Positions 2,593-58,774 of a stretch of DNA of 64,000 nucleotides are shown in pieces. The DNA is taken from IMG/VR virus record IMGVR_UViG_3300013414_000053, positions 1 to 64,000 of that record; one strand, 5' to 3'. The notes beneath the pieces were generated by a model, which saw nothing but the letters and a program-made list of their open reading frames with translations, did no database searches and was not told the origin of the DNA. This DNA is from a virus. Its lineage: Duplodnaviria; Caudoviricetes. A program made the position numbers and the translations under genes. Within the stretch, counting starts at the first letter, position 1. Every line of letters begins with the position of its first letter.

Positions 2593-3867
2593 TTATCCGT
2601 ACTGATGAAGAGAGGAAACCAGCGTCCTGTAAACATCTTTACTGGTCAAGAGCGCATTTTGCATACATCCTATCGTAAAGAAGCCGGAGAACATCTTGTC
2701 TGTCTTTATACGGTTAGCTTTCACATTCCGTCCTATGCCTCGCTGTATGCAGCCATCGGATTGATTGGCAATATATCCCAGTCCTCCGATTTTAGTCTTG
2801 CCAGTCACGACAGCCCTCAAACAATCCATCACAAAGAGTGTGAGAGTTTGAATGTCTTTCTTCACGTTGATGACCGGCAACACCTGAGTGGCCCAGCTAT
2901 ACTCACCATTTCCGCAATAGAGATAATGATTTATATCATTCGTGGCTTTGATGAGGCTTTTCTTTTTGGCTTTGATAGTGCGGGATTCAATCTCTTTCTG
3001 GAAGGCTTTTATTCGGGTTGAGCTGAGAGAAATGGAGGCTCCTTTGATTGAAAACCCAAGGAATTTGAACCACCGAGTATGAGTAAGAAACTCTATCTTT
3101 TTGGGATTGAGTTTCATTTCTCGCTTCGTGACCTCTTCAGTCATTATCTCCATTGCTTTCATATAGTCCGGCCCGACAAATAAGGCATCATCAGAATATC
3201 GGACATACTCGCCATTCAGTTGGCTCAGTCTTTCATCCAGGGTAAACATTACTACATTTGCCAACCAAGAAGCGACCGAACAGCCTTGTTTGAGTGACTG
3301 ATAGGCTTTCTGGAGTTTGCCGTCAGTATCAAAATACCAGTCCGAATGATAATACTTTCGGAGAACATCTATGATAGCGGAATGGCCGTGTTTTGCCTCG
3401 ACTTTATCAAAGGCTTCGTCAATAAATCTGATAGGTACAGAATCGAAATACTTACTGAAATCAGACTTCCACCCAATCACTTCGCCCTTGGTTTGGCAAA
3501 TTCTCTTGGAGATCTCTTTCACAATCTTGCCACAACCGATACCTTTCTGATAAGATTGACAAGTGGGATGAATCATCTCAGGCATCAGCTCAAATAAAAG
3601 GTCATTAGCGATACTGAGGAAGATACGGTCAATCGGCTCATTGACATAGACTGTGCGGAACTCTCCGTTATCCTTGGGGATAAGAGCCGTGTGAGGTGGT
3701 GCAATCTCATATCGGCCGTCTCGTATAGCAGCGTACATAGCAGCTCTGGTATCAGGTTTTGTAAGCTGATAGAGATGAGCCTTATTGATGTGCTTCCCGA
3801 CACCTTTTTCAATGGCATATCGCCATCTCTCAGTATCGAAAAACATTTCTAATATCTTATCATTCAT
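2593..3867 (-). CDS. reverse transcriptase, non-DGR, class unassigned (YSDD)
   Basis: RT motifs IPKDNGEFRTVYV..DR, KSDFSKYFDSV, LKQGCSVASWLAN, YVRYSDD, LNPKK, FKFLGFSI plus a ~140-aa C-terminal extension; no endonuclease domain. Confidence 0.93.
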   Translation of the reverse strand: MNDKILEMFFDTERWRYAIEKGVGKHINKAHLYQLTKPDTRAAMYAAIRDGRYEIAPPHTALIPKDNGEFRTVYVNEPIDRIFLSIANDLLFELMPEMIHPTCQSYQKGIGCGKIVKEISKRICQTKGEVIGWKSDFSKYFDSVPIRFIDEAFDKVEAKHGHSAIIDVLRKYYHSDWYFDTDGKLQKAYQSLKQGCSVASWLANVVMFTLDERLSQLNGEYVRYSDDALFVGPDYMKAMEIMTEEVTKREMKLNPKKIEFLTHTRWFKFLGFSIKGASISLSSTRIKAFQKEIESRTIKAKKKSLIKATNDINHYLYCGNGEYSWATQVLPVINVKKDIQTLTLFVMDCLRAVVTGKTKIGGLGYIANQSDGCIQRGIGRNVKANRIKTDKMFSGFFTIGCMQNALLTSKDVYRTLVSSLHQYG

Positions 3868-4439: not shown

Positions 4440-5735
4440 TTATGCGATTTTTGATATTATTTTTGAACTGTTTGTTTGTATCAGAGACATTATCCGGTCG
4501 TAGTTTTCTGGAGTCTTGTTGTATTTGCCACGACATTGAAGAACCGAGAAATTATCTAATGAGAACTCTATGGTTGCGATTGAAATGCCTCCAACCAAAG
4601 CGTGAAGCACCAATACATTAGCTTTGGAATAATACTTGTTGGTGAAAACGCAGTGGTGCATATACTCGCCTTCGTCAACAAACTCTCTTACAGACTGAAG
4701 AGGTTTGACAACAATTTCCTTATCGACAAATTCCAAATCCAAAAATCTTGATTTAGCCTCTTTATACTTGGCCTCATCGACCTTGCTATTGGCTTCATAG
4801 CGTTGGATAGCCGTCATTTGCCTTTCACGCTCTCTTCGTCTGTCCTCTTCATCCATCTTAGCTCGTTTTTTAGCGATCCAAAAATCGTGAGCCTCTTTAA
4901 GATTGTCAGGACAGATGAATTTGGGATTTCTCAAATCTTTCCCACAATAATCAAGAGCATCGAGCATATCATACCAAGTCGAAGCATCAGTAATCTTATA
5001 GTTATGCCGGAAAGCGATCTTAGCGGAGGGCCAATATTTCTCAAACTTATACTTTTTAGCCAATGAGAAAGCTACCATTTTGTATTGCCCTAATTTCCAT
5101 GCCGTCTCAGTTTTATTGCAAGTGAGTAAGCGTTGAAACAAGGTATATGGGGAGCAATTATGAAAATCACCGTTATAGCCATTTCTCCGAATTTCAGGAA
5201 TTACTGAAGATTGTCCGATAACTTTGTAAGGAGTGACGTAGTGGCCGTAATTTTCTGTTCGGATTTCCATTTCGCTGTCATAGTTCCATATATCGCAATA
5301 ACTGCACATCCAATGTCGAGCACGACCGACTATCACTTCTTTAGCGTCTGGTGTGAGCCAGCGTTGAAAAGCCTCACTAATCCAATAAGTAGCCTTCTCG
5401 CCTCTTCTCAGATTAGTCTGCATAAAGAACATTCTGACAACTTGACAGCCTCCACGCTTGGTTACGATTGCGAAATAAGCTCTATCACAAAAATTCCACT
5501 TGCGAGTCTTGTCAACATCCAGCTTTGCGGAGCAGTGAGGACATACAACCTTAGTAGCCTCATCACCTTTCCAAGAGTGACCACAATCCAAACACACATA
5601 TTCCTTCTTGGAATTGAATTTGGCAATATGCGGAGCCACTTTTCTGACAGCCTCCTTATATTGATGTTCGTTCAAAGGAGAGAGTGTTTTGGATAACTCC
5701 AAAATTTTTCTTTGAAATTTGTTTCTGGGTTTCAT
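4440..5735 (-). CDS. PcfJ-like domain protein
   Basis: N-terminal CxxC...CPHC zinc ribbon; C-terminal EGEYMHHCVF..Y and IATIEFSL..F.VLQCRGKYNK typical of the PcfJ family. Confidence 0.85.
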   Translation of the reverse strand: MKPRNKFQRKILELSKTLSPLNEHQYKEAVRKVAPHIAKFNSKKEYVCLDCGHSWKGDEATKVVCPHCSAKLDVDKTRKWNFCDRAYFAIVTKRGGCQVVRMFFMQTNLRRGEKATYWISEAFQRWLTPDAKEVIVGRARHWMCSYCDIWNYDSEMEIRTENYGHYVTPYKVIGQSSVIPEIRRNGYNGDFHNCSPYTLFQRLLTCNKTETAWKLGQYKMVAFSLAKKYKFEKYWPSAKIAFRHNYKITDASTWYDMLDALDYCGKDLRNPKFICPDNLKEAHDFWIAKKRAKMDEEDRRRERERQMTAIQRYEANSKVDEAKYKEAKSRFLDLEFVDKEIVVKPLQSVREFVDEGEYMHHCVFTNKYYSKANVLVLHALVGGISIATIEFSLDNFSVLQCRGKYNKTPENYDRIMSLIQTNSSKIISKIA

Positions 5736-5756
5736 ATTGTGAAAGAGCTGATAGGA

Positions 5757-6161
5757 TTAGAAAATCGGAATATCCAAAGGCTCCGGGATATTGGGGTCAA
5801 CAGCTGCTTTGGGCTTTCTGGGTTTGCGCTGCTTAGGCTTTTCTTCTGATTTAGGCTTTTCAGGAGATGAAGCCGGCTCAGGTGAGGGGCTTTGTACGGC
5901 TTCCACTTTATTCTTAGGGCCATCTACCACGATGTCATCTTCATCATAGTAGTGGACTGCCAGTCCAAACACCTCATCATCGGAAACACCGACACAACGC
6001 TCACCTTTCGGCTTGTTCTTTTCGACTTGCTGAAAGATGTACTTGCAGCACTCTTTGATATTTTTGTTGGGTTTTGCGTATGTGGTTGCGAACTGAGCAT
6101 CTTCTTCAGCACGCTTGTCAAGATAATTCTTGATAGCGGTTTCAAAAGGGGTAAATTCCAT
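5757..6161 (-). CDS. PcfK-like / AcrIIA9-family protein
   Basis: FETAIKNYLDKRA..D..FA..Y.K.NK.I.EC..YI and SDDEVFGLAVHYYDEDDI motifs; adjacent to PcfJ. Confidence 0.8.
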   Translation of the reverse strand: MEFTPFETAIKNYLDKRAEEDAQFATTYAKPNKNIKECCKYIFQQVEKNKPKGERCVGVSDDEVFGLAVHYYDEDDIVVDGPKNKVEAVQSPSPEPASSPEKPKSEEKPKQRKPRKPKAAVDPNIPEPLDIPIF

Positions 6162-6173
6162 ATTGAAAGATTT

Positions 6174-6698
6174 TTAGGAGTTAAAGAAAAAGAATGTATA
6201 TCTTGTGTTTACATTCTCCTTTTGAGGAGAAGTCAACTGTCTGATTGCGAATTTGAAGGTGTTAGCTTTGAAAGTATGCTCAAAGCCATTCATAGGTTCG
6301 TGATGAGTGTACCGTATTTCAACTTTGGCATCATCAATTACTTTATTGAGGATTACCGGGTTGGTATGCCATTTGCCTTTGTATTTCCAGCAATATAAGG
6401 TTACATCATCAGTCTGGAGGGATTTGAAGTCATCTATTTTAACTAATCCATATTCACTCATAAGCTCATCTAACAGACCTAATAAATAGTCTGGTAATGG
6501 GTCAGTTGAGTCTTTTTTCTTGCCATTACAAAGAGATTCAAACGTAAGTAGAAATGCCTGTTTTATCTCTATCGAGTCAATGCACTTACTTAATTTGTAC
6601 TTACAGAATTGTATGATTTGAGGTTCTATTTTTTTGACAGCCTCATTATTCTTTGCCCGTAATAACTGACGAACATGATCAAGATTGGGGCGTTCCAT
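6174..6698 (-). CDS. hypothetical protein
   Basis: 174-aa ORF, co-oriented. Confidence 0.65.
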   Translation of the reverse strand: MERPNLDHVRQLLRAKNNEAVKKIEPQIIQFCKYKLSKCIDSIEIKQAFLLTFESLCNGKKKDSTDPLPDYLLGLLDELMSEYGLVKIDDFKSLQTDDVTLYCWKYKGKWHTNPVILNKVIDDAKVEIRYTHHEPMNGFEHTFKANTFKFAIRQLTSPQKENVNTRYTFFFFNS

Positions 6699-6712
6699 AG
6701 AAGTGGAAGTTA

Positions 6713-6780
6713 AACCCCTTTATCCCTAACTCGCTGCGCTCGTGTCGCTTCGCTCCAAGGGTTAAAGGGATAAAGGGGTT
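6713..6780 (-). other. hairpin/cruciform downstream of DGR VR2 (putative retrohoming element)
   Basis: 15-bp perfect stem 6713-6727/6766-6780, 5 nt after the target stop; loop shares GGAGCG.AGCGAC..GAGCG.AGCGA with the VR1 hairpin. Confidence 0.7.
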
Positions 6781-6785
6781 AAGGG

Positions 6786-7496
6786 TTAATGAAATGCTGC
6801 CACGGCACGGACGTAGCTGCTGGGCGTGACCTTAGGGGTCCAGCGGAGGCTGCCGGCGTGCAGGCCCAAGTACCAAGCGTGCGTCGCCGAGTGCTCAGTG
6901 CTGGTCCAGTACCAGCCATCTTTAATGCGGCTACCGCCGCTAAGTTCGATGGCGGCATTAATTGAACGCTTGTTAAGATAGATGAGATAGAGTTCAGCAA
7001 CTGAAGGAATCCACTCGTCATCCTCCAGCTCTATGCCGGTGCCGATAGACTTGATATGCTCAGTGTTTGACTGGCCGTTCCAATCAGCAACAGCATCATC
7101 ATATTCAGTGATGTAACCGTCATAACCGCCGGGGTCTTTCTGGTTAGTAAGGGGCTGTTCCGGGTAATCCTCCAGATTGACTGCGAGAGCATGGCGGCCC
7201 ATCACTACGCCGATACGCTTTACCGTCTTAGTCGGGGCATTGCGCTTCTTGTAGTCGAACTTTTCAACTGTGTTATCCTCATAGATGTAGTACACTCCAT
7301 CATTCAGAATGGCTTGATGAGAGCCTTCAGTCTGCTGAATGTCGATTTTGATTTGCTCAACCTCCTTTATCGGAGATTTGATGAAGTCATACACAGCCTG
7401 TGCTTCTTCACCGAAGTCACTGAAGAGAGCAAGTTTCAGCTTCTCATCCATCGGGAGGGAAGCGTAGATAGTTTTTGTGATTTCGTCTGAGATCAT
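6786..7496 (-). CDS. remote DGR target protein (DUF1566/C-type-lectin-like C-terminus)
   Basis: WIPSVAEL and YWTSTE..AW...YVRAVAAFH motifs; 3' end aligns to the TR at 56824-56936. Confidence 0.92.
   Translation of the reverse strand: MISDEITKTIYASLPMDEKLKLALFSDFGEEAQAVYDFIKSPIKEVEQIKIDIQQTEGSHQAILNDGVYYIYEDNTVEKFDYKKRNAPTKTVKRIGVVMGRHALAVNLEDYPEQPLTNQKDPGGYDGYITEYDDAVADWNGQSNTEHIKSIGTGIELEDDEWIPSVAELYLIYLNKRSINAAIELSGGSRIKDGWYWTSTEHSATHAWYLGLHAGSLRWTPKVTPSSYVRAVAAFH
6790..6899 (-). repeat. DGR variable region VR2
   Basis: 110 nt aligning to the 113-nt TR with 15 substitutions, all at TR adenines, plus a 3-nt deletion. Confidence 0.95.
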
Positions 7497-7519
7497 ATTT
7501 TTATATTTTGGATGATGTG

Positions 7520-7687
7520 TTATTTACCTTTGCTGAGGCAGACAGCCAGCTTGTCGAGGTCGTTAGTGCCGAAGTGATCTTTCAGCTCCTTTACGACAGA
7601 TGGTTTCTGATGTTGGAGCAACTGCTTGATAGTAGCGGGGTTGCCGCCTCGATATAAATCAAGGCAGTTCATTGCTTGTGTTGTCAT
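7520..7687 (-). CDS. small hypothetical protein (55 aa, MTTQAMNCLDLY...)
   Basis: Hand-translated; fills the gap between co-oriented genes. Confidence 0.5.
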   Translation of the reverse strand: MTTQAMNCLDLYRGGNPATIKQLLQHQKPSVVKELKDHFGTNDLDKLAVCLSKGK

Positions 7688-7768
7688 ACGTTATTGGTTA
7701 TTTGGTTTTTATTTGAATAGTCTCGTAATGATGAAAAATTAGAATGGAAACGAGATTTTTAAGAGTTT

Positions 7769-8152
7769 TTAAGGAATCGTCACGTCTTGCACCTCATCAG
7801 TTTCCGGAATAAGGTCGATTACATACTCCAACTGACCGTGTGCTATGCTGGTCAGCTCCTGCTCATCATCTGCCCACCCCTCCTTGGGAAAGCCATAAAT
7901 GGCCAGACAACCAAATTCTTCAATGGCAACGCGAGAGATATAAAAATCCTCATAAGTATCCATCCATTTGGTAGAAGCGACGATGATAGGAGCATTGTTC
8001 TTTTCCTCTGAGATGTTCTCGTCATCTCCATCATCTTCATCGGTGTGAATAAACACATATTCATTACCGTGAGCCTTAATTGCTGCTTTAAGCTCTTCAC
8101 GAGTACAATCGTCAAGATGCTTGTACTGATTGTAAAAATCGGTATGTTTCAT
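7769..8152 (-). CDS. acidic hypothetical protein
   Basis: 127-aa ORF in a tightly packed minus-strand cluster. Confidence 0.75.
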   Translation of the reverse strand: MKHTDFYNQYKHLDDCTREELKAAIKAHGNEYVFIHTDEDDGDDENISEEKNNAPIIVASTKWMDTYEDFYISRVAIEEFGCLAIYGFPKEGWADDEQELTSIAHGQLEYVIDLIPETDEVQDVTIP

Positions 8153-8676
8153 TTTTGAAAATCTTTAACTGTAAATCGTTTGAATTTTGTATCGGCCGGC
8201 ACGATATGCCAGTGAAGTCTGTTCTGACTATATCCACAGTACACGAAAAGAAAATGCTCAATCAGTTCATCTTCCTCATCAGGGATTTCATAGAAGTAGT
8301 CGTATTCTTCGTTGTCAATCAACCATTGAGGCAACTGACAGTGAAGCCACTCTCTCTTCACTTTGATGATTGCGACAACCGGAGTATCAGTATCACAATC
8401 AATGATTGCAATGTGGATTTCTTCGTTCATTCGTTTTTGGAAGGCTTCTCCCCATTCTCCCAGCACCCTTTGATTGACTGGGAGCTGAACCGGGAAGTCT
8501 GGATGATATTCAAGGTCAACGGTTTCTTGGAAAGCCTGACCAATTACTTCAGCAGTAGGATTGCCTGTCTTTCTTTCACGCTCATAACACTCTTTGAAGT
8601 ATTTGTCAAAAGTGCGGCGCCAGGCTATATCAGATTGAGAGGGTATTGCCATATCACCAACAATTATTTGAAACAA
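8149..8676 (-). CDS. hypothetical protein
   Basis: 175-aa ORF overlapping its neighbours. Confidence 0.7.
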   Translation of the reverse strand: MFQIIVGDMAIPSQSDIAWRRTFDKYFKECYERERKTGNPTAEVIGQAFQETVDLEYHPDFPVQLPVNQRVLGEWGEAFQKRMNEEIHIAIIDCDTDTPVVAIIKVKREWLHCQLPQWLIDNEEYDYFYEIPDEEDELIEHFLFVYCGYSQNRLHWHIVPADTKFKRFTVKDFQK

Positions 8677-8935
8677 AATCAGCTATTTCATTCGCTTCTC
8701 CACATTCCAGCTCATCAGGAATGTAGAAGAAAATCTCTTCATCAACGGCGGCTGCTTCAGCATTTACTGGATTGCCTGAAGAGTCTATCAACAATCCTTC
8801 AAGGGACTCAACCGATACAGAAACCTCAATGGTTTTCATATTTTGTGCCGAATCCTCATCGCTTTGGTCAACGATATAGATGTCAAACACTGGATAGTGT
8901 TCGCCATTATATTCTATGTATCTATCGGGTATCAT
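8654..8935 (-). CDS. acidic hypothetical protein
   Basis: 93-aa ORF. Confidence 0.7.
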   Translation of the reverse strand: MIPDRYIEYNGEHYPVFDIYIVDQSDEDSAQNMKTIEVSVSVESLEGLLIDSSGNPVNAEAAAVDEEIFFYIPDELECGEANEIADFVSNNCW

Positions 8936-8937
8936 AA

Positions 8938-9531
8938 TTAAAAGGGTAAAGACTTAGAAGTTTCGCCCATCAGGTCAACTGCAAGACCATTTGGGCAGAG
9001 TTTATCAAACCAGTGCCAGATGTCAAAGCGGGATGTTCCAGCTTCCCAGAAATAGAAAGGGGTTTCAATCTCATCTTCATCATTGATTGGAGTATTAGCG
9101 AATTTGCTCCACATCTCCTGAAGTTCCCATAAGTAAGCGTCCTTTTCAATGCGAGCTTTTATTCTTGCTAATATGTAAGGACTTCTTGGGGCATCTGGAT
9201 CGAAGAAGCAACCCTCTTCAGAAAAAGTGGGAAGGCGTTGATTGTCTTTTGCCTCATAATATCTCGTCAACCACCAAGGCTCCATACCAAAAAGGGATTC
9301 TTGATATTCTAAGACCACCATAAACTGACGGATTGGGCAATCGTCATCTTCCATTCGGTAGTAATGCCCATTTGGTCCATCACAATCTCTGCTATAATGA
9401 CCAGGAACTTTGCAATCAGCAATCCATTCTCCCCAATCATTTTGGCGAACCGCAATCACCTTGCCACCCCAAGGAAAGTAACTCAGGGTGTTATTAAACT
9501 GCTGTTCCACCAGTTCTTTCGTTATTATCAT
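8938..9531 (-). CDS. hypothetical protein
   Basis: 197-aa ORF with a 4-nt overlap with the upstream gene. Confidence 0.75.
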   Translation of the reverse strand: MIITKELVEQQFNNTLSYFPWGGKVIAVRQNDWGEWIADCKVPGHYSRDCDGPNGHYYRMEDDDCPIRQFMVVLEYQESLFGMEPWWLTRYYEAKDNQRLPTFSEEGCFFDPDAPRSPYILARIKARIEKDAYLWELQEMWSKFANTPINDEDEIETPFYFWEAGTSRFDIWHWFDKLCPNGLAVDLMGETSKSLPF

Positions 9532-19026: not shown

Positions 19027-20311
19027 AAAATTTCAAAATTGAGCCAAAAGATTGAAAAACAAGCAATTATCGGCAATCAATGTAGATTAAACACTTTTTA
19101 ACACTTAAAGTCGGTTTTTCAGTCTAAAAATGTATGTTTCACTTATTGCAAAAGTGAAACCAAAATAAGCCAAAAATGGAGCTAAACATCTGAAAATAAA
19201 TAAAAAACCGGGGTGGGTGCCTCCCTTGCTCTTCAAGGCAGATGTAAATTTTTCCCAATTTTCAAATCTCGTTTTTGGTAGTTGTTTTACTGGTAGGATG
19301 AGTGCCATCCCAGCTCCACAAAACCCCTTTGAATCGACCCAATTTTCTTCCCAGAAATCGGCGTCAAACCATCATTTTTAAGCCAAAATCGGCTAAACCC
19401 CTGAGCCATCTTAGCTTACCTAATTTACAGCACCTCAGTTCTTTCTCTTAATACTGAGAGGTCATCCCAGCCAATTTTCAAAACCGTCTAAAATGCCCCA
19501 AATTTCGCCTTTCTCAACCTCAAATGAACAACTACACATCTCAGCACACAAAATTGATTGTACGGCCTCCTATGGGGCAAATTTGGGCATATTTCATCTC
19601 AACGTCCGTTCAGGATATTTGGCAACCATAAAAATTCTTGTTTTTGGCACACCAGAAACCTCTCAGAACACTTGCCCAAATTTTTCCGGGGGCGATTTTT
19701 CAAATCGGTTTTTGGACTGGGGGCGATCGGCGGGGCGAGGCCGGCGGCGGGCGCGGTCTTATTTGGGAAAGTTTTAAGAATTTCAAAAAAGAAAAACCTT
19801 AAACCTCCTTCCACTCCCTAAAACTTCCTCAACACTTCTTCCAAACATCACAAAACAGTTTTTGTAAGAATACTGGGATAGGAACTAAGCTCTATTCAAA
19901 AAATCTCTAAACAGTCTTTTTGAAGGTTTACTGGGAATGAGGGGAACAGACTTTGATAAAGATACTGGGATAGGGAGCTACGATTACTAAGAAGTTCTCT
20001 GCCTTGGGCGCGCTCGCGTGTGCGCGGGCCACTCGACCGAATTTCCTTTTCGACTTTAGGAGAAAAGGAATGAGGGAGAGTGGACCCTTTCTTTCTATTT
20101 TTTCTTTTTATTTATTTTTCTTTTTTCTTTTTCTGTCGGTTTTTCTTTTTTCTGTTTTTTCTTTTTCTTGTTGTTCTTTCTTTCGTGGCCTTCGACCACC
20201 CCAGCCACAAAAACAATGCGCCGAGCTTCACAGCCCAGCGCACTTGTAAACCAAAATTTGTATGAGACAAAAACTCGTGCTTATTTCATAATAATCGGTG
20301 GAGAGAGGAAT

Positions 20312-55177: not shown

Positions 55178-55238
55178 AGTTTGAATGACTCGATACTATT
55201 ATATATAAACCAACAGTTTTTTAATTCAATTTTTCAAC

Positions 55239-56057
55239 ATGGCAGAAAAAGTTTTAACAATGGAAGATGACTGGGGTGCAAAGGGTGCCCAGGCAACTGG
55301 TGCTCAGGTCCAGAAATTCTTGAAAGATCAGATCAAGTCTCTGCATGACAAGGACGTCACTCTTCAGAATCAGGTCGACACTCTTTCCAACAATCAGCTG
55401 GAAGCTAACCCGCAGCTTCAGGCAGCCACTGACGGCTGTTTCGTGATCTACCACCGTAAGAGCGATAACTGGCCTTTCGCTGTTCCCTACTGGAAGTGGG
55501 CTGACCTCGAAGCCGCTGGTGAAGTTGCTGATGGTGTTCTCGTTCTCATTGACGGTCAGGCACCAATCATCGTTTCTCCCACCGGCACTCAGCTCACATG
55601 GTCGAAAAACGCTATCGCAGTCAATGCCGATACCGGCGGCGACTACAACAAAGCGTATGTTGACTACTCAGGCAAGACCCGCACCGCCGCTATCATGGCC
55701 AAAGGTGTCGAACTCTTCGGTGAAGAGGAAGAGACCTGGATCCAGTTTGCGCCTGCATGGTGCAACGCCTACGATCGCTCCTACATCAATGACAATGGCG
55801 AAACAGTCGGTATCGGCGCTGGCCAATGGTGGCTCCCCTCTATCGCAGAGCTGATCACCATCTGGAAGCACAAATACGCCATCAATCTGTGCCTCTCAGT
55901 CATTTCGGGCGCCAGCCCGCTGGTTGAGTCATGGCATTGGTCATCAACTGAGGGCTCGGCGGCGGGCGCTTGGGGCTTGTACCTGGACGGCGGCTTCCTC
56001 TGGCGCCCTAAGGTCGCGGGCAGCCTCTACGTCCGTGCCGTGGCAGCATTTCATTAA
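55239..56057 (+). CDS. adjacent DGR target protein (DUF1566/C-type-lectin-like), probable receptor-binding protein
   Basis: WWLPSIAEL, WHWSSTE..AW...YVRAVAAFH; 3' end aligns to the TR. Confidence 0.93.
   Translation: MAEKVLTMEDDWGAKGAQATGAQVQKFLKDQIKSLHDKDVTLQNQVDTLSNNQLEANPQLQAATDGCFVIYHRKSDNWPFAVPYWKWADLEAAGEVADGVLVLIDGQAPIIVSPTGTQLTWSKNAIAVNADTGGDYNKAYVDYSGKTRTAAIMAKGVELFGEEEETWIQFAPAWCNAYDRSYINDNGETVGIGAGQWWLPSIAELITIWKHKYAINLCLSVISGASPLVESWHWSSTEGSAAGAWGLYLDGGFLWRPKVAGSLYVRAVAAFH
55947..56053 (+). repeat. DGR variable region VR1
   Basis: 107 nt versus the 113-nt TR: 20 substitutions, all at TR adenines, plus a 6-nt deletion. Confidence 0.95.
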
Positions 56058-56063
56058 CCCTTT

Positions 56064-56134
56064 ATCTCTTCAACCCTTTAACTCTTCGGAGCGTAGCGAC
56101 GAGCGAGCGAAGCGAGCATAAGGGTTGAAGAGAT
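56064..56134 (+). other. hairpin/cruciform downstream of VR1 (putative retrohoming element)
   Basis: 15-bp perfect stem 56064-56078/56120-56134. Confidence 0.7.
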
Positions 56135-56323: not shown

Positions 56324-56707
56324 ATGGCTTTATCTAACGAATTGCCGGTTTATGTTGAAACCTATCATTATATTCAAGCAGTGATTGACACTCAAAAGAA
56401 TTTTCCAAGGGATGTAAAACACACCGTTGGTCAAGAATGGATTAGAGTTGCTATCTCATTGCCTACTTTTATAGTTAAGGCAAATATGTTCAAAAGTGAA
56501 CGAGAAGCATACTTGACTGATTTCATTTGTGAGTTTGAACACTGCAAACTGATAGTAAGACTTGCTGGCGATAATCGTTGGATAAGCCGGAAGCAGCAAT
56601 CCAACCTCATGTATTTGGAGGCGACTATTGGCAAACAAGTGACAGCATGGAAGAACGCATCGAAAAAGAGGTATCGAAAACGTACATCTCCTGAAGATGC
56701 TGATTAA
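56324..56707 (+). CDS. avd: DGR accessory variability determinant (four-helix bundle)
   Basis: LPVY..Y, FPRDVKHTVGQ, IGKQVTAWK motifs; lies between target and TR. Confidence 0.88.
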   Translation: MALSNELPVYVETYHYIQAVIDTQKNFPRDVKHTVGQEWIRVAISLPTFIVKANMFKSEREAYLTDFICEFEHCKLIVRLAGDNRWISRKQQSNLMYLEATIGKQVTAWKNASKKRYRKRTSPEDAD

Positions 56708-56823: not shown

Positions 56824-56936
56824 ACTGAGAACTCGGCGACGAACGCTTGGAACTTGAACCTGAACGACGGCAACCTCAACAACTGGAACACTAAGGTCAC
56901 GAACAGCAACTACGTCCGTGCCGTGGCAGCATTTCA
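56824..56936 (+). ncRNA. DGR template repeat (TR)
   Basis: AAC-rich non-coding copy of both VRs between avd and RT; ends GCATTTCAACG versus GCATTTCATTAA in the VRs (IMH*/IMH pattern). Confidence 0.95.
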
Positions 56937-57002: not shown

Positions 57003-58322
57003 ATGGTAACGTATGAAGGATTGGTAGAAGCCTACTTAGATTGTCGTGTACACAAGTCGCGGACAAACAACTGCATCAGGTTTACTCTTGATGTGGAAGG
57101 CAATCTCTATGATATGATGCAAGCTATCAATAATAGAACCTATCAACCTAAACGTTCCATTTGCTTTGTCGTTAGTCGCCCCAAATACCGTGAGGTCTTT
57201 GCAGCTGATTTCGCAGACCGCATTATTCATCATTACATAAGACTTAGACTGGAGCCTATAATTGAACAAAAATTTAATGAACGTACCTTTAACTGTAGAA
57301 ATGGGAAAGGCACACTTGCTGGTGTAGAGCAGTTAAAGAAAGATATTGTGGAGTGCTCCCAGAATTATACACAAGACTGTTATGTGGCAACCGTAGATAT
57401 TAACAGTTTCTTTATGTCTATTCCGAAGAAACTGGTAGAAGATATGGTTGTCAAACTTGTAGAGGACAATTATTTTGGTGAAGATAAGGATGATTTAATT
57501 TATCTATGTCACGTTGTTTTAAGCCATTGCCCAGAAGAGAACTGCATCAGGCAATCTTCAGAGGCTATGTGGAACAACTTACCAGCAAGCAAATCTCTTT
57601 TTACTAATGGCAATGGATTGGGTATGCTCATCGGTAATCTCCCATCCCAGATGTTTGCCAATTATCTTTTGAACTCACTTGATTGGGCGATTGAAAACGA
57701 ATATGGGATAAAATATCACGGCAGATATGTTGATGATATATATTTGGTAGCTGAAACTAAAGAGCAAATTCTCAATGCTATCCCAAAAATCAGACAAAAG
57801 TTAGAATCCTTAGGATTGAAATTATCGCCCAAGAAATTCTATATGCAACATTATTCTAAGGGATTAGATTTTACTGGAGCCGTTGTTAAACCCGGAAGAG
57901 TCTATCCACTTAGTCGCACAGTCACTAACTTTAGACACAGCATTGGTAGGCTCAACAAATGTCGCACCAAAGCGCAGGTTATAAGAGCATTGTCCTCAGT
58001 CAATAGTTATCTTGGATTATTAAGACATTATGATAGCTATGCCATTAGATACAATGGATTGATGGAGATTGATGCAAAATTATTTAAGTGGGTTTACATC
58101 AAAGGACACATGGAAGTGGTGAAACTGAAGAAGAAGTATCACCCCAGAACCCGTATCCGTTACCGGCTTAACCATAACTTTCACGATAAACTCTCCCTGC
58201 CTCATCCCATTGCTGAGTTTGAGGAAAGAGATGATAAAGAAAAATATATGAGGATGTTAGCTGAATATACCCCAGTGAATATCCCCTCAATCCACATACT
58301 TGAAAGTCATTCGGACTATTAA
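57003..58322 (+). CDS. DGR reverse transcriptase
   Basis: KYREVFAADFADRIIHH, DINSFFMSI, IGNLPSQMFAN, GRYVDD, LDFTGAVV motifs. Confidence 0.95.
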   Translation: MVTYEGLVEAYLDCRVHKSRTNNCIRFTLDVEGNLYDMMQAINNRTYQPKRSICFVVSRPKYREVFAADFADRIIHHYIRLRLEPIIEQKFNERTFNCRNGKGTLAGVEQLKKDIVECSQNYTQDCYVATVDINSFFMSIPKKLVEDMVVKLVEDNYFGEDKDDLIYLCHVVLSHCPEENCIRQSSEAMWNNLPASKSLFTNGNGLGMLIGNLPSQMFANYLLNSLDWAIENEYGIKYHGRYVDDIYLVAETKEQILNAIPKIRQKLESLGLKLSPKKFYMQHYSKGLDFTGAVVKPGRVYPLSRTVTNFRHSIGRLNKCRTKAQVIRALSSVNSYLGLLRHYDSYAIRYNGLMEIDAKLFKWVYIKGHMEVVKLKKKYHPRTRIRYRLNHNFHDKLSLPHPIAEFEERDDKEKYMRMLAEYTPVNIPSIHILESHSDY

Positions 58323-58363: not shown

Positions 58364-58774
58364 ATGGACCAGATCAACAGCAACAACGAACCTGTAGAAC
58401 AGCAGGTAGAAGTAATGGCTCCCGAAGAGTCAGTAATGTCGCCTGAAATGCTTGCAGAAATGGAAGCTCAGAAGGATCAGGAACTCTATGGTGATAACGT
58501 CAAGAAAATCGGCGGTTGCGCTGTAGTGACCGTTGGAGACGAAGTTATCGCTCTCGAACTCCCGATTACCTATCCCCAGCTCCTTTCGGCTATCATCAAG
58601 CGCAAGTACGACTCCGACCAGGCCGAAGCGATCACCGCAAACTTCCTCAACGCCCGCCTTCAGGCCGTTCCTGAGAACAAGGCCGCTGAGTATGTCGCAG
58701 AATATGAGGCATACCAGGCATGGCGCAATACGGCTAAGGCCGTTGCCAAGGAAGTGATGGGGGTTGAAGAGTAA
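58364..58774 (+). CDS. hypothetical protein (fibre-assembly-like)
   Basis: 136-aa ORF; IIKRKYDSDQAEAI..N motif. Confidence 0.65.
   Translation: MDQINSNNEPVEQQVEVMAPEESVMSPEMLAEMEAQKDQELYGDNVKKIGGCAVVTVGDEVIALELPITYPQLLSAIIKRKYDSDQAEAITANFLNARLQAVPENKAAEYVAEYEAYQAWRNTAKAVAKEVMGVEE

Follow-up and report, generated by a model that had tools for sequence, protein, structure and literature searches.

The question raised by this locus is why, and by what route, a phage DGR should rewrite a gene far from its template that is encoded on the other strand and outside the virion genes. The window—the whole stretch of DNA analyzed here, 64 kb in length—is the first part of an 89.7-kb contig with an estimated completeness of 81%. 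Its DGR cassette is on the plus strand and comprises an Avd accessory protein (56324-56707; Pfam bAvd, E 2.8e-13, with an NCBIfam DivGenRetAVD match at E 3e-10 that falls under the model's cut-off), a 113-nt template repeat (TR; 56824-56936) with 35 adenines and, in the frame of the variable repeats (VRs), 11 AAC codons, and a 439-residue DGR RT (57003-58322; Pfam RVT_1, E 4.9e-19). The TR is flanked by Avd and the RVT_1 RT in the same genome, and RT orthologues adjoin the TR in relatives. Two genes end in a VR. One, encoding the 272-residue P0002 (55239-56057, plus strand), comes after baseplate-hub and baseplate-assembly homologues and carries VR1 (55947-56053, plus strand) at its end. The other, encoding the 236-residue P0001 (6786-7496, minus strand), lies outside the baseplate/tail module and carries VR2 (6790-6899, minus strand) at its 3' end, which encodes roughly the last 36 residues. 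Read from 6899 to 6790, VR2 departs from the TR by 15 substitutions, all 15 at TR adenines (9 A>C, 5 A>G and 1 A>T; hypergeometric P = 1.8e-9, with 35 A among 113 TR positions), and by an additional 3-nt (one-codon) deletion in the AAC-AAC tract of the TR. VR1 shows 20 substitutions, again all at A (P = 4e-13), and a 6-nt deletion at the same tract. Both VRs close with an identical GCAGCATTTCATTAA, and the whole 89.7-kb contig holds exactly three copies of the repeat, namely one TR and two VRs. The original prediction, made from the DNA alone, that a single TR serves both an adjacent target in the tail/baseplate module and a remote one with the same 3' end, is borne out in its coordinates, its substitution counts and its geometry: VR2 and the TR are ~49.9 kb apart, on opposite strands. 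Judged by its sequence, P0001 is a DGR target, with a TR-matching VR whose differences fall essentially at TR adenines. The 11 AAC codons of the TR alone permit ~15^11, roughly 9e12, variants.

VR2 is very probably a genuine and currently active second target that is diversified in trans by the single DGR of the phage, as comparison with related sequences argues. Among 11 IMG/VR orthologues of P0001, the scaffold is kept and variation is confined to positions that correspond to AAC codons in the TR. Three clusters formed at a minimum of 90% identity, with 535, 363 and 100 members, were each sampled at 15 sequences, P0001 being added to the alignment of the first (16 sequences). In these alignments, residues 1-197 are almost invariant, with 2-8 variable columns, and ~20 columns between 198 and 230 reach up to 9 states. 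At the DNA level, two metagenomic copies (L004 and L005) have the same sequence throughout the 597 nt preceding the VR, and so do another (L029) and each of three further copies (L030, L031 and L032). Despite these identical flanks, the VRs differ within each pair at 12-18 sites. Across eight genomes, VR columns are variable at 23 of the 35 TR-A positions as against 3 of the 78 non-A positions. Finally, the TRs of two clades differ at four non-A positions (GTCACG versus GTGTCG, and CTACGTCC versus CTATGTGC), and VR1 and VR2 of each clade carry the non-A version of their own TR, the one exception being VR1 of the window, which reads GTCGCG, with the adenine mutated. Such concerted evolution requires continuing transfer from TR to VR at both sites.

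Because these four lines of evidence—orthologue variation, cluster diversity, identical-flank pairs and concerted evolution—are independent and all show VR2 to be active, we reject the reading of VR2 as an inactive relic, in which a duplicated target would have kept a TR-like end by descent while no longer being diversified; we regard it as extremely improbable. The one-codon difference in length between VR2 and the TR could suggest decay, but length polymorphism recurs within clusters among otherwise identical proteins. Moreover, descent from a duplicate would not explain copies with the same flanks that differ solely in the VR and, there, exclusively at TR-A positions, the hundreds of variants in each 90% cluster, or the tracking by both VRs of clade-specific non-A changes in the TR. 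The other point in favor of a relic is a relative, G003 (locus L011, IMGVR_UViG_3300045988_168810; 114 kb, 96% complete), that keeps the distant target, a VR-like end and the hairpin described below, and in whose record no DGR RT and no TR were found. Its VR has three non-A differences from related TRs, as expected if homing had stopped in this lineage. The protein can thus persist without a DGR.

Equally pertinent is whether the element that writes VR2 might be another one. A second RT gene (2593-3867, minus strand) lies 3 kb from VR2 on the same strand, and the contig is 81% complete, so that VR2 could in principle be served by this RT or by an additional TR beyond the assembled sequence. 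We give this very little credence, since the second RT matches the DGR RT weakly and locally, with 23% identity, and a repeat search returned no TR-like repeat around it. Between this RT and P0001 sit genes for a PcfJ-like protein (4440-5735, minus strand; E 1.8e-34) and a PcfK-like protein (5757-6161, minus strand; E 2e-24), whose Pfam names derive from genes of a conjugative plasmid, pCF10. The relatives also speak against another source: the complete ones measure 107-114 kb, have a single TR each and, including one with direct terminal repeats (G004), hold exactly one TR and two VRs. In four relatives (G001, G002, G004 and G005), VR1 sits next to the TR, with VR2 49-51 kb off on the opposite strand.

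The same relationship between a distant target and a DGR is found in other lineages. In five near-complete genomes of 46, 52, 62, 88 and 110 kb (G006-G010; CheckV 99-100%), the RT is 38-55% identical and lies 12-54 kb from the P0001 homologue. Against the TR next to this RT, the distant VR shows mismatches almost exclusively at TR adenines (16 of 17, 20 of 22, 7 of 10, 14 of 17 and 14 of 14). The orientation of the target relative to the RT differs between lineages, and an RT is found within 10 kb in only 2 of the 75 viral loci that encode a P0001 homologue.

A plausible route to a site so far away is offered by the sequences that surround both VRs. Similarity between VR1 and VR2 extends 33 nt beyond the stop codon. 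The flank of the TR diverges from the VRs directly after ...CATTTCA, and the GC-rich end is common to the TR and the VRs. Beginning ~10 nt past the stop codon, each target gene is followed by a hairpin with a loop of ~40 nt that contains GAGCGNAGCGA-like motifs. The VR2 hairpin (6713-6780, minus strand) has a 15-bp stem, formed by 6713-6727 with 6766-6780, and a conserved GC-rich loop; the VR1 hairpin (56064-56134, plus strand) has an unlike stem sequence but the same architecture and loop motifs. Folded as DNA, the VR2 hairpin reaches -19.9 kcal/mol, with z ~ -3.8 for each of the two hairpins. In a covariation analysis of 16 VR1 and VR2 copies from relatives, which used slid partners as the control, the consensus structure of 20 pairs was paired in 99% of cells versus 38-54% in the slid controls, and compensatory double changes were seen at 7 hairpin pairs versus 1-2. 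No such hairpin follows the TR. There is no T-run downstream of the hairpins, and a consensus terminator scan of the VR2 hairpin returned no terminator.

We therefore propose, as a working model, that the RT and Avd copy TR RNA into an adenine-mutagenized cDNA, which, on encountering a shared set of recognition signals, would replace the 3' end of whichever target gene bears them. These signals would be the 3' end of the repeat, which is poor in A, rich in GC and ends in ...GCAGCATTTCA, the differing flank beyond it, and the hairpin ~10 nt downstream. Because the signals are shared by both targets, homing would act in trans across 49 kb, reaching the other strand. The parts of this model that can be read in the sequences are the single template, the confinement of differences to adenines, the continuing diversification, the concerted evolution and the covarying hairpin common to both targets. 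That the hairpin would serve as a homing signal, and that the shared signals would let a single cDNA pool reach a site 49 kb off on the other strand, is proposed by analogy with BPP-1. In BPP-1 (mtd, avd, TR, brt), as here, adenine-specific retrohoming acts on the 3' end of a C-lectin gene and involves Avd, a GC-rich IMH-like end and a downstream hairpin, although there is a single target and it is adjacent. In BPP-1, the hairpin is formed by a short GC stem with a small loop, unlike the 15-bp AT-rich stem and conserved ~40-nt loop found here, which could alternatively be an RNA element. It has been reported for BPP-1 that the IMH and the downstream inverted repeat direct homing and that avd-TR-brt acts in trans (PMC5758913).

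The two-target layout itself is already known, and a claim to novelty would be unsupported, because it has been published, together with a homologous distant target, for the Bacteroides uniformis phages Bacuni_F1/F2/F4 (Hedzet, Rupnik and Accetto 2021, PMC8143477; MT635598). As in the window, one TR in these phages serves two DUF1566/C-lectin targets, one beside Avd-TR-RT and one distant (PMC8143477). By tblastn, Bacuni_F1_00026 is homologous to P0001, with 37-38% identity over 92% of the query; its gene has DNA polymerase A on one side and a C5 methylase on the other, at ~12 kb from the cassette and on the same strand, and its VR varies among near-identical isolates. On this full-length homology, and on a non-structural position away from the RT, we assign P0001 to a Bacuni-type family of distant targets. 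There are also clear differences. The Bacuni phages are 40-kb Siphoviridae with a target ~12 kb away on the same strand (PMC8143477), whereas the phage studied here belongs to a group with genomes of ~110 kb and baseplate genes, its target is 49 kb off on the opposite strand, and P0001 is accompanied by an RT, PcfJ and PcfK instead of polA and the C5 methylase.

Other published systems resemble the present one in part. In a survey of DGRs, many phage-associated elements were found to have one adjacent and one non-adjacent target, with nearly all of the latter no more than 50 kb from the RT (Wu et al. 2018, NAR, PMC5758913), but the non-adjacent proteins, their neighborhoods and their population diversity were left uncharacterized there, unlike here (PMC5758913). 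A later large survey was unable to detect targets that do not adjoin the RT (Roux et al. 2021, PMC8144416), so distant phage targets are under-counted. Tentaclin cassettes (Baykov et al. 2023, PMC10743442) likewise have one TR for two C-lectin proteins that differ in topology, and the paper gives the second no known role (PMC10743442). They differ from the layout here in that both targets are inside the cassette and in that one VR is at the 5' end of its gene and is followed by Ig-like domains. About as large as the complete relatives is BS-TP1, a cultured phage of Bacteroides salyersiae (PQ571274, 111.7 kb; PMC12694917). Its gp76 (L104, PQ571274.1 77864-78535) is a P0001 homologue with 32% identity and is followed by a UG27-like RT (gp79, mis-annotated as a "tail protein"), so that the synteny with an RT is as in the window. 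BS-TP1 has a TR near 27.4 kb, an adjacent VR at 27-28 kb and, on the other strand near 78.4 kb, a distant VR with 14 core mismatches at TR adenines. The available text of the BS-TP1 paper names gp27 as the DGR target and makes no mention of gp76 (PMC12694917). Since this cultured phage has the distant target, it gives a ready experimental system.

What P0001 might do with a rewritten surface depends in part on its architecture. In an AF2 model (pLDDT 88.9), P0001 consists of two helices (residues 4-13 and 16-40), a disordered linker (43-61) and a compact domain (62-236), which is a C-type-lectin (Lcl_C/DUF1566) head with the VR at its C-terminal end. The Pfam Lcl_C match (E 2.8e-5) is under the gathering score. 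The best Foldseek matches are the C-terminal domain of Legionella Lcl (8q4e) and a B. ovatus fimbrial protein (4eps), with C-type lectins matched as well, and the matches in BFVD are phage DUF1566 proteins. The model thus predicts a small binder in which a helical stalk and a flexible linker carry a C-type-lectin head with a rewritten surface. P0002 has a disordered but conserved N terminus, a long helix (21-56) and a C-type-lectin head; longer relatives of ~390-400 residues exist, and one relative of 358 residues has a match to Pfam PF10473, which we take to be a coiled coil. By hhalign, homology between the two proteins is limited to the C-terminal ~113 columns. A full-length BLASTP alignment between them was rejected as evidence of N-terminal homology, only the C-terminal half being supported by hhalign. 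The expectation that the N terminus of P0001 is unrelated to that of the fiber-region target is therefore upheld at the profile level, but it needs tempering at the structural level, because both proteins place a C-type-lectin head behind an N-terminal helical stalk and a linker. Architecture and head are thus common to the two targets, but no N-terminal sequence similarity is detectable. A phmmer search with the first 66 residues of P0001 against 1.84 billion representatives returned only its own family, and a search of the ESM Atlas with residues 1-125 gave only sub-threshold matches. NCBIfam has no name for P0001, P0002 or six neighbors.

For the role of P0001, two readings in particular have to be weighed. 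The one toward which we lean, though at somewhat less than even odds, is that P0001 may be a low-copy accessory adhesin, either virion-borne or set free when the cell lyses, with some other protein as the main determinant of host range. The other, which builds on the original prediction and which we consider possible though not the better choice, is that P0001 binds ligands inside the cell without being a structural protein and is made early or together with the replication genes; variable proteins of host defense could be such ligands, and the DGR would adapt P0001 to new hosts. A smaller share of the probability falls to other roles. Gene position is the best argument for an intracellular protein. 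P0001 starts 23 nt past the preceding ORF, in a leftward block that contains small ORFs, PcfK, PcfJ and the second RT and in which PHROGs returned only families of unknown function; the DNA of 5000-9000 had no match in a phage collection. The heptamer ACTATTA, a putative late-gene motif judging by its distribution, occurs 17 times against 7.6 expected, and 14 of its copies fall within the structural block, on the plus strand from 27.4 to 59.1 kb (27411-59101). One of these (55195-55201) is 38 nt upstream of the P0002 start, and others are just 5' of the ORFs starting at 58364 and 59115. There is none on the minus strand between 1.6 and 21.8 kb and none near the VR2 gene, which lies outside the late block and lacks the putative late motif, contrary to what would be expected for a virion structural or receptor-binding protein. 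The position is also conserved elsewhere. In Bacuni F1 and three of the other lineages (G006, G008 and G009), the homologue follows DNA polymerase A at a distance of one or two small genes, with a sliding clamp, a methylase or a VapE-type primase coming after it; in two of these genomes (F1 and G009), the homologue and its upstream ORF overlap. In BS-TP1, the syntenic block carries Lar-like and immediate-early-like annotations. From its position, the packing with polA elsewhere and the putative late motif, it is plausible that P0001 is among early genes, and it is probably transcribed with non-late genes. A conserved partner gene beside the target was sought, and upstream ORFs were found to be kept only within lineage groups, the window ORF at 7769-8152 pairing with BS-TP1 gp75 and Bacuni_F1_00027 with its counterpart in G009. 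A T-rich imperfect repeat of five overlapping 39-nt copies (20089-20184) occupies part of the mostly ORF-poor DNA that separates the leftward block from the genes after it, and may be a regulatory or origin region.

Further evidence divides between the two readings. An intracellular location agrees with the lack of an obvious N-terminal signal peptide in P0001, as judged by eye. It also agrees with the Bacuni phages, in which 15 SNPs separate the distant VRs of F1 and F2, two phages with a common host, and F1 and F4 differ in the adjacent VR and in their hosts (PMC8143477), so that changes in the distant VR left the host unchanged. However, these same host data also suit an accessory adhesin that does not set host range, and together with the stalk-plus-head build, which parallels the tail-module paralogue P0002, and with a fold family (Lcl, fimbrial tip and DUF1566 proteins) that is typically extracellular, they make us lean slightly toward that reading. 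In addition, the N-terminal domain has no homologues that would hint at an effector, and the sole experimentally tested phage DGR target in the literature we compared, Mtd of BPP-1, is a virion surface protein (PMC5758913).

A broader proposal extends the intracellular reading to the whole family. P0001 and its homologues might represent a conserved class of DGR-diversified non-virion binders, expressed together with the early or replication genes and active within infected cells or lysogens, where variable proteins of host defense or of competitor phages would be candidate partners. We consider this proposal, partners included, rather unlikely; under it, phage hypermutation would serve something other than adsorption. 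Even the narrower possibility that the distant target is non-structural would mean that the assumption that phage DGRs serve only host recognition needs revising. At least six phage lineages (40-114 kb) have a homologous distant target, always off the virion genes and always with the same hairpin-flanked VR, and its natural diversity is as rich as that of the tail-module target. With the Bacuni phages and BS-TP1, there are two cultured systems in which its role is directly testable.

Two minor observations concern hosts and loop length. Members of the P0001 clusters include proteins named from Muribaculaceae and Prevotella sp. MGM2 assemblies. One P0001 orthologue, P0151 (WP_104404781.1), comes from a 149-kb contig of Prevotella sp. 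MGM2, assemblies of Prevotella and Muribaculaceae, from isolates as well as MAGs, contain orthologues, and one relative (G001) is classed as a provirus. These sources and this classification are hints to the host range and to a temperate or carrier lifestyle. Regarding length, VR2 is one codon shorter and VR1 two codons shorter than the TR in the AAC-AAC tract, and the adjacent VR of BS-TP1 has a 3-nt insertion. A polymorphism of 236 versus 237 residues is present in each of the clusters formed at 90% identity or more (P0003, P0037 and P0015; 5 of 16, 4 of 15 and 6 of 15 sequences, respectively), where it is seen among otherwise identical proteins. This pattern suggests that DGR homing here also creates loop-length variation.
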